Source: a virus
DNA length: 64,000 nucleotides
Direction: 5' to 3' (one strand)
Virus record (IMG/VR): IMGVR_UViG_3300050034_000187
Coordinates: 7,866-71,865 of that record
Shown here piece after piece: positions 290-6,009 of the stretch; position 1 is the first letter of the stretch; each line of letters begins with the position of its first letter. The translations under genes were made by a program, and so were the position numbers. The notes beneath the pieces were generated by a model, which worked only from the letters and a program-made list of their open reading frames with translations, searched no databases and had not been told where the DNA came from.

Positions 290-1984
290 TTATTTTTTAT
301 GTCTTTTTGCTGCTGACCATGGGCCAGCAATGAATGATTCTGATATTCCGCACTCGCAAACTTCTTTGCCGCATTTTTCACATTTCTCTTTATCACAAAT
401 ACAAGGATCTTTGTGACACTTTGGACAAATAGATTCATCACACTCTGATTCATTAATTGCTTTATAACAATCTTTGCAATATGCTACATGCTTTTCAGAA
501 TCTTTATCTTTGCTACATTTATTACATAGTTTATCTTTACATCTACGGCAAGTATATTCTGAAATTCTATTACCGCATTGATCGCATAATGTATGTTCAG
601 TTACACTTTCTGAAACTTCTTTACTTCTCATTAAACGATATTTTTCTTCATATTTTTTACGAAGTTTCTTATGAAATTCATACATATCATAATTACCTTT
701 CTTTTGATAAAATTCTTCAAGATAACCATGTTCTTTTATTTTCTCTGAAATATCTGCCAATGGGGTTCCAGATTTGCAGCATCCAAGGGTACATTCCGAT
801 GATTCTTTAATTTTTCCAAATTTATTTTTTTGTTTTGCACGGATCGCAAAATTAACTTGTTTCAATCTTTTAGAATCCTTATCACTTTTCTTTTCTTTTT
901 TATCTAATCGAGTTTTTTCCTTTTTTAATTCTGCAATAGTCCAACCATCCCACATGCCTTTATCTTTCTTGGAAGTATGCATCTCTTCATCCCATGACTC
1001 ATTGACTGATTTAACGAATTTGGAAAGGTCTTTATTATATGCAATAATATTATTTGGATATTTTGTAATAATAAATTGTCTTAACGTATTAATCCATGCT
1101 TTTCTGGCTTCTTCTTTCGTAAGTCCTTCCATTGAAAGGGATTGAATTTTAAATGGTTTGTTATTTATAGTTATATTTGCAATGCCGATAAACGCATTAT
1201 CCATTCCCGGAATAATGCTAATTTTAATAACCTTGATTTTCGAATTTCTATTTTTAATCATAGATACTAACTGCTTTATTTTTGGAATTCCATAATCAAC
1301 TACATTGTTATATGCACTATCGGCTGCATTGGCTGCTGAATTATATACATCGTGTGCTTTATCGGATATAGCTTCATCCCATGCTTCTTTAATTTCATTA
1401 TCTGAATTAATCCATTTTCCGTACCAAGGCAATTCATATGCAAGGTCTTTGCTCGAATAATATGTAGGGGTATCACTCCATCCACCAACGGTATTACTAT
1501 TCCAATATTTTCCTGTTTTTATATTTTTAATTATCCAATTTCTTTTTAATGATTTGTCATTGGATTCTTCATCAATAATGCCACGAAGTTTTGCCAATTG
1601 ATCAGCTAATGATTCTTCAACTTTATTATCAAAATTTGGTTTTTTGGGTTCTTTCGATGGTTCGGCATCTTTTGGTTCAGACGGGTCCTTTGAATCCGCT
1701 GTCTTTGGAGCAGATTCCTTGGTGGGCGGGGTTTTTGAACTTCCAGAATAGATTGATGCCGCATCGCTGGTAGTATCGCCTTCATAGTCTCCATATTCGC
1801 AGCAATCTTCATCCTCTGCTCCAACGAATCCCCCCGAAGTTGATTTTCCCATTGTGTAAATAGAAGCATTTTTTGCTTGGGCGCTTGATTCAATTTTTGG
1901 CATGCCCGGAGGATCTACTAATCCAAGATTTGTTCCTTCTGCTTCCAAAATAATTTGATGTAATTTTTGCAAACTATCTGACAT
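290..1984 (-). CDS. Modular putative internal head protein (564 aa) with many [ILV]-x-E|[AS] sites and a Cys-rich C-terminus
   Basis: ORF between gp21 and the gp22-like gene; low-complexity linkers; CxxC clusters near the C-terminus. Confidence 0.5.
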   Translation of the reverse strand: MSDSLQKLHQIILEAEGTNLGLVDPPGMPKIESSAQAKNASIYTMGKSTSGGFVGAEDEDCCEYGDYEGDTTSDAASIYSGSSKTPPTKESAPKTADSKDPSEPKDAEPSKEPKKPNFDNKVEESLADQLAKLRGIIDEESNDKSLKRNWIIKNIKTGKYWNSNTVGGWSDTPTYYSSKDLAYELPWYGKWINSDNEIKEAWDEAISDKAHDVYNSAANAADSAYNNVVDYGIPKIKQLVSMIKNRNSKIKVIKISIIPGMDNAFIGIANITINNKPFKIQSLSMEGLTKEEARKAWINTLRQFIITKYPNNIIAYNKDLSKFVKSVNESWDEEMHTSKKDKGMWDGWTIAELKKEKTRLDKKEKKSDKDSKRLKQVNFAIRAKQKNKFGKIKESSECTLGCCKSGTPLADISEKIKEHGYLEEFYQKKGNYDMYEFHKKLRKKYEEKYRLMRSKEVSESVTEHTLCDQCGNRISEYTCRRCKDKLCNKCSKDKDSEKHVAYCKDCYKAINESECDESICPKCHKDPCICDKEKCEKCGKEVCECGISESFIAGPWSAAKRHKK

Positions 1985-1992
1985 ATTTCTCC

Positions 1993-2637
1993 TTATAGCT
2001 TCTTTAAATCTCTAATAACATTTACCAGAGATTCTTTAATATATTTTTGTACTTTTGGATCATATTGCGCGTCAATGGCAGTGTTATATGCTTTATAACC
2101 ACCCTTTGAATTTAGAAGACTTTCATAGACTGGAACAGGATAGGCATTTGGCGCTGATGGTGTTGCAACGACGTCCACGGTCGTAATAAAAAATTCACTT
2201 ACCATTCCGGTAGATTCATTAACACTGCCGGACCCTCGGCTAGATACTCCGAGCGGAACACCGTCTTCAAGAATAGCACGCACAATATTTCCCATTGGGG
2301 TGGATAAAATTTTCAATTTACCATAACCATCTGATTGTTCCATCCACATTTTGGTGATTGCATGAGATGCCCGTTCTGGAGCAATTTGCAAACTATCAGG
2401 ATGGCTTAATTCACCGAGAACGGGGTGGCCATTTGTAATTTGGTCGTTGATTTCGGTTACGGCTCTTTGAATTTCCCCGAATGGATAAATTCGTTGATTT
2501 TGGTTTCTAACATCGCCTTGAATGCAGATTCCATTCATATATAAATGTTTCTTTTTTTGTCCTGTGAAATCCGTTTCTTCTAGTAATTCTGTTTTCATAG
2601 AAGAAACCATTTGATATTCTAACAAGTTTTGCTTCAT
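1993..2637 (-). CDS. gp21: Prohead core protease (T4 gp21 family)
   Basis: NQNQRIYP, GELSHP (catalytic His), GVSSRGSGS (catalytic Ser), DVVATPSAPNAYP; TAAATA late motif upstream. Confidence 0.92.
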   Translation of the reverse strand: MKQNLLEYQMVSSMKTELLEETDFTGQKKKHLYMNGICIQGDVRNQNQRIYPFGEIQRAVTEINDQITNGHPVLGELSHPDSLQIAPERASHAITKMWMEQSDGYGKLKILSTPMGNIVRAILEDGVPLGVSSRGSGSVNESTGMVSEFFITTVDVVATPSAPNAYPVPVYESLLNSKGGYKAYNTAIDAQYDPKVQKYIKESLVNVIRDLKKL

Positions 2638-2718
2638 AGCTTACCTCAACAAATATATTTATCAAACTTTTGAATTTCCATTTATTTTCTGTCATACTAA
2701 CTTAAATGGAGTTAGGAA

Positions 2719-3417
2719 ATGTACGATAAATTTATAACTGAAGTTAGTAATGCACCTATATGGAATAAATGGATAGTTTCCCATAGAAATGGAGATACGG
2801 CAATTGGAAAAACCTTTGAAGATATCTTGCATATAAAAGAAAACAATAGTCCAGAAGCAGATTTATATGGAGTTGAAATTAAAGCTAAAAGATCTTCTTC
2901 TGATTCTTCAATTACTTTATTTACTGCTAGACCATGTTATCCTCCCAAAGCTACCAAATACTTAATTAATAACTATGGATATTATTCAGAAGATAGCTCA
3001 GAGAAAAGATTCTATTCTACTTTATTATGTAACCGAATTACTACTTATAATGATATTGGTTTGAATATAACCATAAATGATTCTGTTAATATTATTGCCA
3101 ATGATGAAGCGATTGTAAGATGGGAATATGATCGTCTTAAAAAAATCACATCCAAAAAATTGCCTGCAATGGGATTTGTTACTGCCGATTCTAGAGTTAT
3201 TCAAGATCACGAAGAGTTTTATTATAGAGAACTAGAACTGATGTGGGGATTTTCTTTTGATAGATTTTTAGAAGCAATTAAAAACAAACAAATAAGTATT
3301 GATTTTAGAGCTAAATTAAAAAATGGAAGAGTGCGGGATCATGGAACGGCTTTCAGGATATCAAAAAATTATTTGAAAAATCTATATGAATTTCATGACA
3401 TAATTAAAGGAAATTAA
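2719..3417 (+). CDS. MvaI/BcnI-family restriction-type endonuclease, no methyltransferase adjacent
   Basis: GDTAIGKTFEDILHIKENNSPEADLYGVEIKAKR...ITLFT matches the MvaI/BcnI N-terminal pattern; upstream TTGAAT-17-CATACT (2670-2698). Confidence 0.85.
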   Translation: MYDKFITEVSNAPIWNKWIVSHRNGDTAIGKTFEDILHIKENNSPEADLYGVEIKAKRSSSDSSITLFTARPCYPPKATKYLINNYGYYSEDSSEKRFYSTLLCNRITTYNDIGLNITINDSVNIIANDEAIVRWEYDRLKKITSKKLPAMGFVTADSRVIQDHEEFYYRELELMWGFSFDRFLEAIKNKQISIDFRAKLKNGRVRDHGTAFRISKNYLKNLYEFHDIIKGN

Positions 3418-4764
3418 ATGGGTATTAAACTAACAAAAGAACAGTTTATTAAACGGGCCATTGATAAACATGGAAATAAGTATAGATATGATAAACTTAT
3501 TTATTTTGGAATGGGCAAGAAAGTAGAAATATTCTGCAATAAATGTGGGATATACTTTTGGCAACGGGCAGGTGATCATTTAAGTGGAAGTGGATGCAAA
3601 ATTTGCGGTGGAGTTCTGGTATATGATACTGCATCATTTATATTAAATGCACTTAAAATACATGGAATAAAATATAATTATGACAATGTTACTTATATCG
3701 GCACTGACGAAAAAATAAAAATATATTGTAATGCATGTAATAAATATTTTTCGCAAACCCCCAATGCTCATATAAATGGAAAGCAAGGTTGTCCTAGATG
3801 CGCAAATATTAATACTGGAATAAAGCAAACCATGACGTTAGAAGAATTTATTGAAAGAGCCAAGAAAACTCACGGAGATAAGTATTCTTATTCAGAATGT
3901 GAATACATAGACGCGCACGAGAAGGTGAAAATATATTGCAATACTTGTAAACGATTTTTTCAGCAACGGGCATATTGCCATTTGCAAGGAGAAGGCTGCA
4001 ATATTTGTGGAAGAAAGAAGGCAGCGAAAAGTAATACTTTGGAAAAAGAAAAGTTTATAGCAAAAGCTAAAAAGAAACATGGGAACAAATATAATTATGA
4101 TAAAGTTGTTTATATCGCAAATCACAGCAAGATTGAAATTTTTTGTAATACCTGTAAAAAGGTTTTTTGGCAAGAACCCGCAGCACACGCGGGAAAATCT
4201 GGAGAGGGCTGTCCTTATTGCATTGGAAAATATAAAACCACCGAAGAATTCATAATAGAAAGTAAAGAAATTAATGGTGAAGATACATTTTCTTATGAAA
4301 AAGTAAATTATATTGATCAAAAAACTCCGGTAGAACTATTTTGTAATAAATGTAAGCAGTATTTCTCTCAATCTCCGAAAAGTCATTTAAAAGGAAATGG
4401 ATGTTCAAAATGTAACGAATCACATGGAGAAAAATATATAAGAAAGTTATTAAAAGACGGGAACTATAATTTCAAATCACAGCAGGGATTTCCCAAATGT
4501 AGACACAAGAGAATGCTTCGATTTGATTTTACAATATATAATGATACTTCGGTAATCGGAGTTATTGAATATCAGGGAGCACAACATTATAAACCAATTC
4601 CATTCTTTGGCGGGGAACCAACGTTACAAGAAAATAAACTTCGCGATTCTATTAAAGAAAAGTATTGCAACAATAATAATATTCCCCTTTGCATTATTCC
4701 ATATACAGAACGAAATTTATCAAAAATATTATTTGATTTTTTGAAACAAATACAAAAAGACTAG
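3418..4764 (+). CDS. Free-standing homing endonuclease: repeated Zn-ribbon units plus C-terminal PD-(D/E)XK nuclease
   Basis: Five HG.KY.Y...Y.....KV.I.C..C...F.Q....HL.G.GC..C repeats; RFDF...IEYQGAQHY nuclease motif. Confidence 0.85.
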   Translation: MGIKLTKEQFIKRAIDKHGNKYRYDKLIYFGMGKKVEIFCNKCGIYFWQRAGDHLSGSGCKICGGVLVYDTASFILNALKIHGIKYNYDNVTYIGTDEKIKIYCNACNKYFSQTPNAHINGKQGCPRCANINTGIKQTMTLEEFIERAKKTHGDKYSYSECEYIDAHEKVKIYCNTCKRFFQQRAYCHLQGEGCNICGRKKAAKSNTLEKEKFIAKAKKKHGNKYNYDKVVYIANHSKIEIFCNTCKKVFWQEPAAHAGKSGEGCPYCIGKYKTTEEFIIESKEINGEDTFSYEKVNYIDQKTPVELFCNKCKQYFSQSPKSHLKGNGCSKCNESHGEKYIRKLLKDGNYNFKSQQGFPKCRHKRMLRFDFTIYNDTSVIGVIEYQGAQHYKPIPFFGGEPTLQENKLRDSIKEKYCNNNNIPLCIIPYTERNLSKILFDFLKQIQKD

Positions 4765-4785
4765 CACAAATTGTGCTAGTCTTTT
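4755..4785. terminator. Bidirectional intrinsic terminator
   Basis: 15-bp arms AAAAGACTAGCACAA/TTGTGCTAGTCTTTT, 1-nt spacer, between converging genes. Confidence 0.8.
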
Positions 4786-4800
4786 ATTGTTATTAATAGA

Positions 4801-6009
4801 TTACTTTACTGCGCCTTCAATAGGTCCTTTGTTGGACTTTTCTGGCTTTGTTTTTGCCTTGGCTGCTGGCTTCAACTTTGCCTTTCCGCCCGGACGGTTT
4901 TGAATTTCTCCGGAAAACATCTCTTTTGGTGTTGGTGCAGGTCGGCCTTTTTCGGTTGCATTTTGTGCAATATTTTTTGGGCCAACTCCCTTTACAATTT
5001 CATTTTTACCGGCAACTGGAGATTTCTTACCAACAAAATCCGCTTCAGCAGAAGTCGATAATCCACGAGTTACTTTTTCAACATATTCGCGAATCAGATT
5101 TTCAGATACAGGCTCTTCATCATCTGACGGAAGTTCTACCGATTCATCATCTTCGTGAACCTCTTCGGTATCGTCATCTTCATCGTTTTCGGTGTCGTCG
5201 TCGTCATCGTCTTCCGATGCTTCATGTTCAGAAAAATCAAAATCCTCGTCGTCCCCTTCTTCGGATTCAAGGTCATCTTCAACCTCTTCATCATCGTCAG
5301 AAGCAGTATCAAGGTCTTCGGCTTCTTCTGCATCACCCTCAGCGTCAGACCCGGCTAATTCTGCGGTCTCTGCACGAAGTTGTTCAAATTCCGATTTCAA
5401 TGAATCTAGTTCATCTTCTAGATCGGTTACGCGCTCTTCCTCGGGAGGATTAAGCTCATCACCGCCATGTAGACCTTCATTATCGCCGTCAATATCAAAG
5501 CTATCATCCTTAACTTCATCTTCAAAGTCATCAGTTTCATCACCACCAATAACTTCATCTTCGTCTGGATCAACATCACCGGAATGATCACTGTTGACTT
5601 CATCAAAAGCGCGTTCAGATTCATCGGATTCTCTAATTTTTTTGGGAATTGAAATTCCATATGTGAGCTTTCCGTATCTATAAGCGGACCTAATATCTTT
5701 AAAAGTTTTTACGGATGGCGGAATAGATTCATCTTCGCCATTTGATTGATAACTCAATTTAAATTTTACTTTACAATCTCCTCTTGCTGGATCATAAATA
5801 ATTACTCGTACTCGGTCGCCACTTCCCAACTCATACGTTTTATCAAATGCAAAACCTTGTTCATAGTTATAATCAGGTTCATCTAAATCAAAGTCTTCAT
5901 AAATCTTGCGACTCATTCCAACCACAATATTATGAAAAAGAGCACGAGCACTCTTCTCATCACCGTTAACAACATGTTCAACTAATTTATCAAATTTCTT
6001 GGATGCCAT
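4801..6009 (-). CDS. Acidic prohead scaffold/core protein
   Basis: MASKKFDKLVEHVVNGDEKSARALFHNIVV, ERVTDLEDELDSLKSEFEQL, long D/E tract; lies between portal and gp21. Confidence 0.65.
   Translation of the reverse strand: MASKKFDKLVEHVVNGDEKSARALFHNIVVGMSRKIYEDFDLDEPDYNYEQGFAFDKTYELGSGDRVRVIIYDPARGDCKVKFKLSYQSNGEDESIPPSVKTFKDIRSAYRYGKLTYGISIPKKIRESDESERAFDEVNSDHSGDVDPDEDEVIGGDETDDFEDEVKDDSFDIDGDNEGLHGGDELNPPEEERVTDLEDELDSLKSEFEQLRAETAELAGSDAEGDAEEAEDLDTASDDDEEVEDDLESEEGDDEDFDFSEHEASEDDDDDDTENDEDDDTEEVHEDDESVELPSDDEEPVSENLIREYVEKVTRGLSTSAEADFVGKKSPVAGKNEIVKGVGPKNIAQNATEKGRPAPTPKEMFSGEIQNRPGGKAKLKPAAKAKTKPEKSNKGPIEGAVK

Follow-up and report, generated by a model that had tools for sequence, protein, structure and literature searches.

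The loss of restriction sites from phage genomes is normally taken as an escape from the restriction-modification (R-M) systems of the hosts. Chloroviruses, for their part, encode Type II R-M systems that degrade host DNA, and the cognate methyltransferases methylate the viral genome. A bacterial enzyme, PacI, is of the HNH type and has an 8-bp, AT-only site that is rare by chance in its GC-rich bacterium. Our literature search returned biochemical work on MvaI, BcnI and UbaLAI, surveys of site avoidance in phages that read the avoidance as host-driven, and one survey of prokaryotic restriction enzymes that are solitary (PMC3488263). The latter cites R.PacI of Pseudomonas alcaligenes as a solitary restriction endonuclease in a host genome without the recognition site. 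The search yielded no description of a phage-encoded Type II enzyme that lacks a methylase and is coupled to a genome-wide purge of its site, and bacterial PacI was the only precedent found.

Here we analyze a nuclease gene of a T4-like phage from peat, located in a stretch of 64,000 nucleotides (the window) that is part of the single viral record G000:C1. Its product resembles R.MvaI (CC/WGG; structures 2OA9 and 2OAA), a monomeric Type IIP enzyme of an R-M system, in belonging to PF15515, in its two-lobe fold, in the E-D-ExK catalytic set and in the site predicted for it. The differences are that the two proteins are only about 29% identical, that His223 of MvaI is replaced by Arg, and that the gene resides in a T4-like phage of lytic type without an N4 methylase of the M.MvaI type, where self-protection is apparently achieved by absence of the site and not by methylation. 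R.BcnI (CC/SGG; 2ODH and 2ODI) shares family and fold, but it reads its site with H77 and H219, and CCSGG is abundant in the phage. As in the case of PacI, a Type II endonuclease without methylase would be tolerated because its target is absent; unlike PacI, the site is a degenerate 5-bp sequence with 100-240 expected copies, completely removed, in phages, and repeatedly. The role that we propose, a phage nuclease that would cut host DNA and not phage DNA, is analogous to that of T4 EndoII (denA) and EndoIV (denB), although T4 recognizes its own DNA by hydroxymethylcytosine, recognition here would be by sequence content, and the protein families are unrelated. Chloroviruses likewise use a virus-encoded Type II endonuclease offensively, but this phage has no cognate methyltransferase in the sequenced record. 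The system is thus composed of known elements: the enzyme is of the MvaI type, the absence of sites would protect as in the case of PacI, and the logic is that of the T4 nucleases for host DNA.

The nuclease gene and its surroundings

The features of the locus are as follows.

1993-2637, minus strand: gene for a gp21-type prohead protease (PF03420, E 1.6e-28)
2670-2698, plus strand: weak sigma-70-like match, TTGAAT-17-CATACT (8/12, by eye), not supported as a promoter
2708-2711, plus strand: GGAG Shine-Dalgarno sequence, 7 nt before the ATG, read from the sequence
2719-3417, plus strand: predicted solitary MvaI-type PD-(D/E)xK restriction-like endonuclease, 232 aa (Pfam, structure match and residue map)
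3418-4764, plus strand: abutting downstream ORF of homing-endonuclease type, 448 aa (PHROGs, Pfam)
4755-4785, no strand assigned: bidirectional terminator hairpin with a 14-bp stem (terminator scan)

The assignment of the ORF at 2719-3417 to the MvaI/BcnI family, made in an earlier note from the sequence alone, was borne out by a match to PF15515 (MvaI_BcnI) with an E-value of 1.3e-43 and 150 bits (cut-off 25 bits), spanning profile positions 11-227 of 227. The same match was returned by a profile search of the whole genome; PHROGs holds no family for the protein. Among solved structures the E-values were 1.6e-23 for R.MvaI (2oa9) and 8e-7 for R.BcnI. An AlphaFold2 model, with 17 homologues as input, reached a pLDDT of 92.6 and a pTM of 0.88, and in Foldseek its top match was the MvaI-DNA complex 2oaa_A (E 3e-19, TM 0.87/0.82, rmsd 2.8 Å), above the BcnI-DNA complex 2odi_A (TM 0.79). 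The model has the two-lobe fold of MvaI and BcnI, and we consider family and fold practically certain.

The catalytic set of MvaI consists of Glu36, Asp50, Glu55 and Lys57, and its base contacts are Arg25, Asn28, Thr29, Thr68, Thr102, Asp207, Arg209, His223, Asp224, His225 and Arg230 (PMC1874612). These residues were mapped through the alignment of the phage nuclease with 2oa9, in which the chain index equals the number in that paper plus 3. The phage nuclease retains the complete catalytic set (E34, D48, E53 and K55). E34, E53 and K55 are invariant in the homologue alignment A2 and D48 is nearly so, and the four are present in all tabulated viral and cellular homologues except the fragment L130. 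The base-contact set by alignment to MvaI is given on a line of its own.

R23, D26, T27, T66, T101, D195, R197, R206, D207, H208, R213: predicted base contacts of the phage nuclease

Nine of these eleven are identical in MvaI, and the other two, D26 and R206, are conservative changes. The former replaces Asn28, and Asp is the usual residue at this position in cellular homologues that are paired with a methylase; the latter replaces His223, a conservative change, and an Arg would still suit the guanine contact. In BcnI the central C:G pair is read by H77 and H219 (PMC3089477). The position of H77 is occupied by Thr69 in the phage nuclease and by Thr in MvaI too, and R197 is the presumed counterpart of H219. 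Because the contact residues are kept, the H77 position is Thr and the match to MvaI is the closer one, the phage protein is, by residue comparison, of the MvaI type and not of the BcnI type. The N-terminal MYDKFITE, which ends in I-x-E, was also considered as a T4-style capsid-targeting leader and rejected, the motif being lost in the homologues with 57% and 52% identity.

The gene had been credited with its own promoter. This could not be upheld, since the promoter scan returned nothing on the plus strand upstream of 2719, with a regional count below the shuffled mean, and only the weak match found by eye is left, which lies under the threshold of that scan. In PHROGs the downstream ORF matches phrog_559 ('HNH endonuclease', E 8.7e-82) as well as phrog_9084 ('homing endonuclease', E 2.5e-26), and in Pfam it matches PF14311 and PF10881. 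Its product has some five repeats of the treble-clef zinc finger, with a nuclease-like DUF2726 domain at the C terminus. Since the gene map of the sister lineage L002 has no such ORF in this slot, the ORF was probably inserted separately as a mobile element. The terminator closes the two-gene plus-strand cassette and faces a convergent head gene. On the other side, gp21 is a conserved neighbor: in L002 and L003, too, the nuclease lies beside it in this slot and is encoded on the opposite strand.

Peat metatranscriptome contigs from four runs, compared with positions 1900-4900, cover gp21, its neighbors and part of the ORF at 3418-4764 and not the nuclease; such contigs cannot demonstrate the absence of a nuclease transcript. 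Contigs from three runs of one peat study match gp21 and head genes (1900-2650 and 4773-4900) at 99% or more, and one contig is an exact match to 4375-4611, within the homing-type ORF. Matches this close place the phage, or a strain nearly identical to it, in the RNA libraries of a different peat study.

CCWGG and methylases in the phage genome and its relatives

Two further features concern the record as a whole.

1-64000 of the window and the whole 195,761-bp record G000:C1, no strand: absence of CCWGG (counts)
G000:C1:117482-118675: gene for a C5 cytosine methyltransferase, 397 aa, outside the window and 107 kb from the nuclease

Exact counts agreed with the earlier note, which by eye had found neither CCAGG nor CCTGG: both are 0 in the 64-kb window, for 33 CCWGG expected by a third-order Markov model, 49 by a first-order model and 39 from mononucleotide composition. 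In the whole record of 195,761 bp CCWGG is again 0, with 100, 151 and 114 expected, respectively, and no other 5-mer of the record comes near it in depletion (z about -10; the next has -5). The sequence CCSGG (CCCGG plus CCGGG), on the other hand, occurs 47 times in the window, correctly reported before at positions 1905 and 23821 among others, and 148 times in the record against 83-123 expected, that is at or above expectation. The GC content is 35.1% in the window, somewhat higher than the 32% or so estimated previously, and 34.6% in the record. The latter is rated 53% complete by CheckV; one relative is represented by a complete genome of 322.5 kb. Since the contact residues are MvaI-like, and CCWGG is absent while CCSGG is retained, the nuclease is very likely specific for CCWGG.

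In agreement with the earlier note, no methylase lies next to the nuclease. In the 195,761-bp record, rated 53% complete, neither PF01555 (N4/N6) nor PF02086 (Dam) found a match, and there was no credible ORF with an N-methylase motif IV, only a 172-aa ORF with NPPF at residue 9. A cognate N4-type enzyme elsewhere in the genome, which the earlier note had named as a finding that would speak against it, was thus not found in the 196-kb record, although one could lie in the unsampled part because the record is rated 53% complete. Over that part of the genome the nuclease has no cognate methyltransferase of the kind that defines a Type II R-M system, and the combination of no cognate methylase with zero sites is that of PacI; the same combination is found in the complete genome G001 and in the first 220 kb of G002 (see below). 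We discarded the C5 methyltransferase as a candidate for a hidden partner, because it is not a member of the Dcm/M.EcoRII subfamily (NF007772, 24.7 bits versus 710), because MvaI is indifferent to 5-methylcytosine (PMC1874612), and because there are no sites to methylate. Its closest solved structures are 3g7u and the DNMT1 catalytic domain, and the gene after it in the phage genome encodes an IS200/IS605 TnpA transposase (G000:C1:117482-119167; L001:1411-3302).

CCWGG is not the only sequence that is avoided. The record has 0-1 copies of each of 16 six-base palindromes for which 6.5-47 copies are expected (CTTAAG, GGATCC, AGGCCT, CAGCTG, CTGCAG, GAGCTC, CGATCG, CCTAGG, CTCGAG, GTGCAC, GGGCCC, GGTACC, GTCGAC, GCCGGC, GGCGCC and CCGCGG). 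CAGCTC/GAGCTG is zero in the record as well, so that SAGCTS is missing altogether. The loss of palindromes suggests that the phage DNA is unmodified and strongly exposed to Type II restriction. The phage thus avoids restriction sites in general, and CCWGG was perhaps lost to host restriction before the gene arrived. Avoidance of a host CCWGG system, which the earlier note gave as the alternative, may accordingly be the origin of the absence, and it may have made the gene acquirable. In the main rival explanation, the restriction systems of the hosts removed CCWGG and the nuclease was captured later, tolerated only because its sites had already gone, with little or no benefit; as a whole we regard this as unlikely.

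The relatives of the phage bear on this alternative in both directions. Close homologues of the nuclease numbered only three (P0001-P0003) among 5.8 billion proteins; a search of the phage collection for near-identical DNA gave no match, and a single-protein scan of viral contigs gave no relatives. The homologue with 92% identity is known as a protein only, with no DNA on record. The one with 57% identity is found in L002 and L003, in the slot beside gp21 described above, and the one with 52% identity in L004-L009, where a related T4-like phage has it at another place in its genome. All catalytic and contact residues are kept in both, and CCWGG is absent from the contigs of both (0 for 14 expected and 0 for 20-23 expected, respectively). 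A useless and potentially lethal nuclease should decay, and the preservation of every key residue in the lineages at 52-57% identity thus argues against a late capture without benefit. Besides, if the host N4-methylates CCWGG, a captured endonuclease gene would add nothing to host restriction.

By means of gp21, 80 related T4-like loci were found, 78 of them without the nuclease gene. The latter are not depleted, with 865 CCWGG against 783 expected, or about one per kb, so that the possibility raised in the earlier note, that relatives lacking the gene are equally depleted, does not apply to this one clade. Two apparent exceptions, the CCWGG-free loci L020 and L021, were discarded, since they belong to the L004 phage (99.97% identical) and their contigs end before the gene. 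PF15515 had no match in five large non-carrier records, in a search that does recover the nuclease from the genome to which the window belongs. In the gp21 tree the 78 gene-less loci cluster tightly in a single clade that excludes the three carriers, whose branches are long. The 78 loci therefore amount to one phylogenetic contrast, and the argument rests on unrelated carriers. Moreover, the three related carrier lineages all avoid many palindromes and the non-carrier clade does not, as would be expected if host restriction had emptied these genomes of sites.

Carriers in other viruses and in cellular genomes

An alignment-based scan of viral contigs yielded 40 further loci with members of the PF15515 family. 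A solitary MvaI-type gene together with zero CCWGG was found in the two sister lineages and in seven further viral lineages, with GC contents of 33-59%; at least eight unrelated phage lineages show the pairing. Among them are L092, with the complete 175-kb genome G001 (CCWGG 0, with 91-119 expected), and L121, with the complete 517-kb genome G002 (0, with 223-244 expected in the first 220 kb). The remaining solitary carriers likewise have none, for 13 expected in L094, 21 in L106, 38 in L107 (GC 58.6%), 22 in L120 and 19-21 in L122 and L123. PF01555 had no match in the whole records G001 to G005, and no N4-type methylase was found for the independent zero-CCWGG carriers with the MvaI-type contact signature. 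G002 is a jumbo phage with direct terminal repeats, and its solitary family member has a D-R signature. In its first 220 kb (L140-L150), nearly all of the six-base palindromes tested are missing, 34 sites being at 10% of expectation or less, and TGCA occurs 67 times for 862 expected.

Broad avoidance of palindromes in G002 and also in L107 fits host-driven loss of sites. However, CCWGG is the only (pseudo-)palindromic site of 4 to 6 bp that is strongly depleted in 12/12 carrier sets, across GC contents of 33-59%, the other avoided sites vary among the sets, and L106 avoids CCWGG alone. G001 keeps GGATCC, GGCGCC, CAGCTG and GGTACC, four palindromes, and yet has 0 of about 100 CCWGG. Not one of the roughly 100 phage loci that lack a solitary gene of the MvaI type is free of CCWGG. 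The methylase-less MvaI-type gene and the total absence of CCWGG are thus tightly and repeatedly coupled, and this coupling is in all likelihood functional.

Viral relatives with a methylase present a different picture. Where the MvaI signature is accompanied by an adjacent or nearby SPPY methylase-like ORF, CCWGG is kept (92 sites in L112, 11 in L093 and 8 in L091); the PF01555 match of this ORF is clear for L112 and L093 and below threshold for L091. In L095-L103 the MvaI-signature nuclease lies 0.1-1 kb from a DPPY methylase-like ORF of 670-730 aa (PF01170; PF01555 borderline), and despite this ORF there are only 0-3 CCWGG per locus of about 19 expected. A viral group with a different signature (N-R at 207-208, equivalent to MvaI 224/225) has an adjacent SPPY methylase, a normal number of CCWGG and mostly no CCGG. 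This N-R branch is marine and cyanophage-like, comprising L090 (MH319755, Kyanoviridae), L105, L109-L111, L113-L115, L118, L119, L124 and L125, and it has an N4/N6 methylase of about 300 aa with the SPPY motif directly downstream wherever the contig reaches past the gene. In L090 there are 0 CCGG, hence no CCSGG, in 28.9 kb, despite a full R-M pair.

The query for the scan of cellular genomes was a 5-sequence alignment. An ORF with the SPPY motif of methylases was found within 3 kb, and mostly directly adjacent, for 24/30 cellular homologues, and these 24 loci are ordinary MvaI-type R-M pairs. A host source of the phage gene is accordingly plausible, as the capture of a host nuclease would require. 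The contact signature of the methylase-paired enzymes is R-D-T-E-D-E-K-T-T-[T/S]-D-R-H-D-H-R, and the phage nuclease agrees with it at 15/16 tabulated positions. Several Bacteroidales loci (L151, L154, L156, L168 and L179, of 8-21 kb) have a full R-M pair and yet zero CCWGG for 9-33 expected; they come from Hoylesella, Prevotella, Alistipes and Paludibacteraceae. These pairs, together with the depletion in L095-L103, mean that depletion does not require a solitary nuclease.

A branch of Bacilli/Tenericutes from the gut (L170-L173) has no methylase and retains CCWGG at between a third of and nearly the expected rate. This branch, the Arg in place of MvaI His223 and a secondary nicking activity of MvaI itself (PMC3001055) would be in line with a phage protein that is not a CCWGG double-strand cutter, but has drifted in specificity, only nicks or serves a role other than restriction. 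We hold this to be very improbable. In L170-L173 six contacts are changed (T66C, T69S, T101A, D195N, R197K and R213E), and the branch probably has another specificity or role; the phage enzyme, in contrast, is like the methylase-paired enzymes at all but one position, and what all carriers have purged is the word CCWGG itself, while CCSGG is kept or even enriched.

Proposed role of the nuclease

We propose that the gene encodes an active CC/WGG endonuclease that the phage tolerates because its own DNA has no site, and that cuts the DNA of the host or of rival phages. To this reading as a whole we assign a probability of roughly 0.6. The monomeric MvaI-type enzyme would recognize CCWGG and cut CC/WGG by two successive nicks. 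The phage, without a cognate N4-cytosine methylase, would tolerate the enzyme since every CCWGG has been purged, and any CCWGG arising in phage DNA would be lethal, so that selection would keep the genome clean. In the infected cell all DNA that bears CCWGG would then be cut except that of the phage itself. Cutting of the host chromosome would contribute to host shut-off and nucleotide supply, as EndoII and EndoIV do in T4 with its hydroxymethylcytosine, and co-infecting phages and plasmids would be further targets. Methylation of the Dcm type would not shield the target DNA, because MvaI ignores 5-methylcytosine. In this scheme we infer the catalytic activity, the exact specificity, the time of expression, the target and the order of gene arrival and site loss.

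Protection by site avoidance, as the earlier note had put forward, is supported by the genome-wide absence of CCWGG, the gene-less relatives, the lack of a methylase and the recurrence in unrelated phages. An offensive role against host or rival DNA, that is the use as a weapon, appears somewhat more probable than a different function.

T4 homing endonucleases of the seg and mob groups bring about exclusion or marker exclusion of co-infecting relatives. By analogy, the nuclease might mainly destroy co-infecting relatives that bear CCWGG and spread as a selfish, free-standing cassette. The cassette context hints at inter-phage conflict, with an opposite-strand insertion slot among head genes, followed by the homing-type ORF and the bidirectional terminator. 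In the L004 lineage the gene is located elsewhere in the genome, and related T4-like phages, with their roughly one CCWGG per kb, would be shredded. Nevertheless, the window and L002/L003 share the slot beside gp21 despite 57% identity of the nucleases, which fits better with long vertical inheritance than with frequent homing, and an enzyme with a 5-bp site lacks a unique target for homing. We therefore think it rather improbable, slightly more so than a late capture from a host, that rivals are the main target; the present data fit the host chromosome as a target equally well. Returning to the endonuclease tolerated by site absence, the chances are about even that it represents a recurrent phage strategy, in which a methylase-less Type II enzyme would distinguish self from non-self by sequence content alone, in genomes of up to 517 kb.

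If this holds true, complete loss of a site can mark a weapon of the phage itself and not necessarily a defense of the host. Some avoidance signals would then report phage offense, namely where such an enzyme has caused the loss of the sites or prevents their return, and it would be misleading to predict hosts from them. T4-like phages without modified cytosine would have a simple means to destroy the DNA of hosts and competitors with their own DNA spared, and a rule for self and non-self drawn from genome content would join the one based on base modification. The coupling would also provide a cheap genomic predictor of enzyme specificity, namely the missing word, and it points to natural, methylation-tolerant CCWGG cutters in diverse phages.
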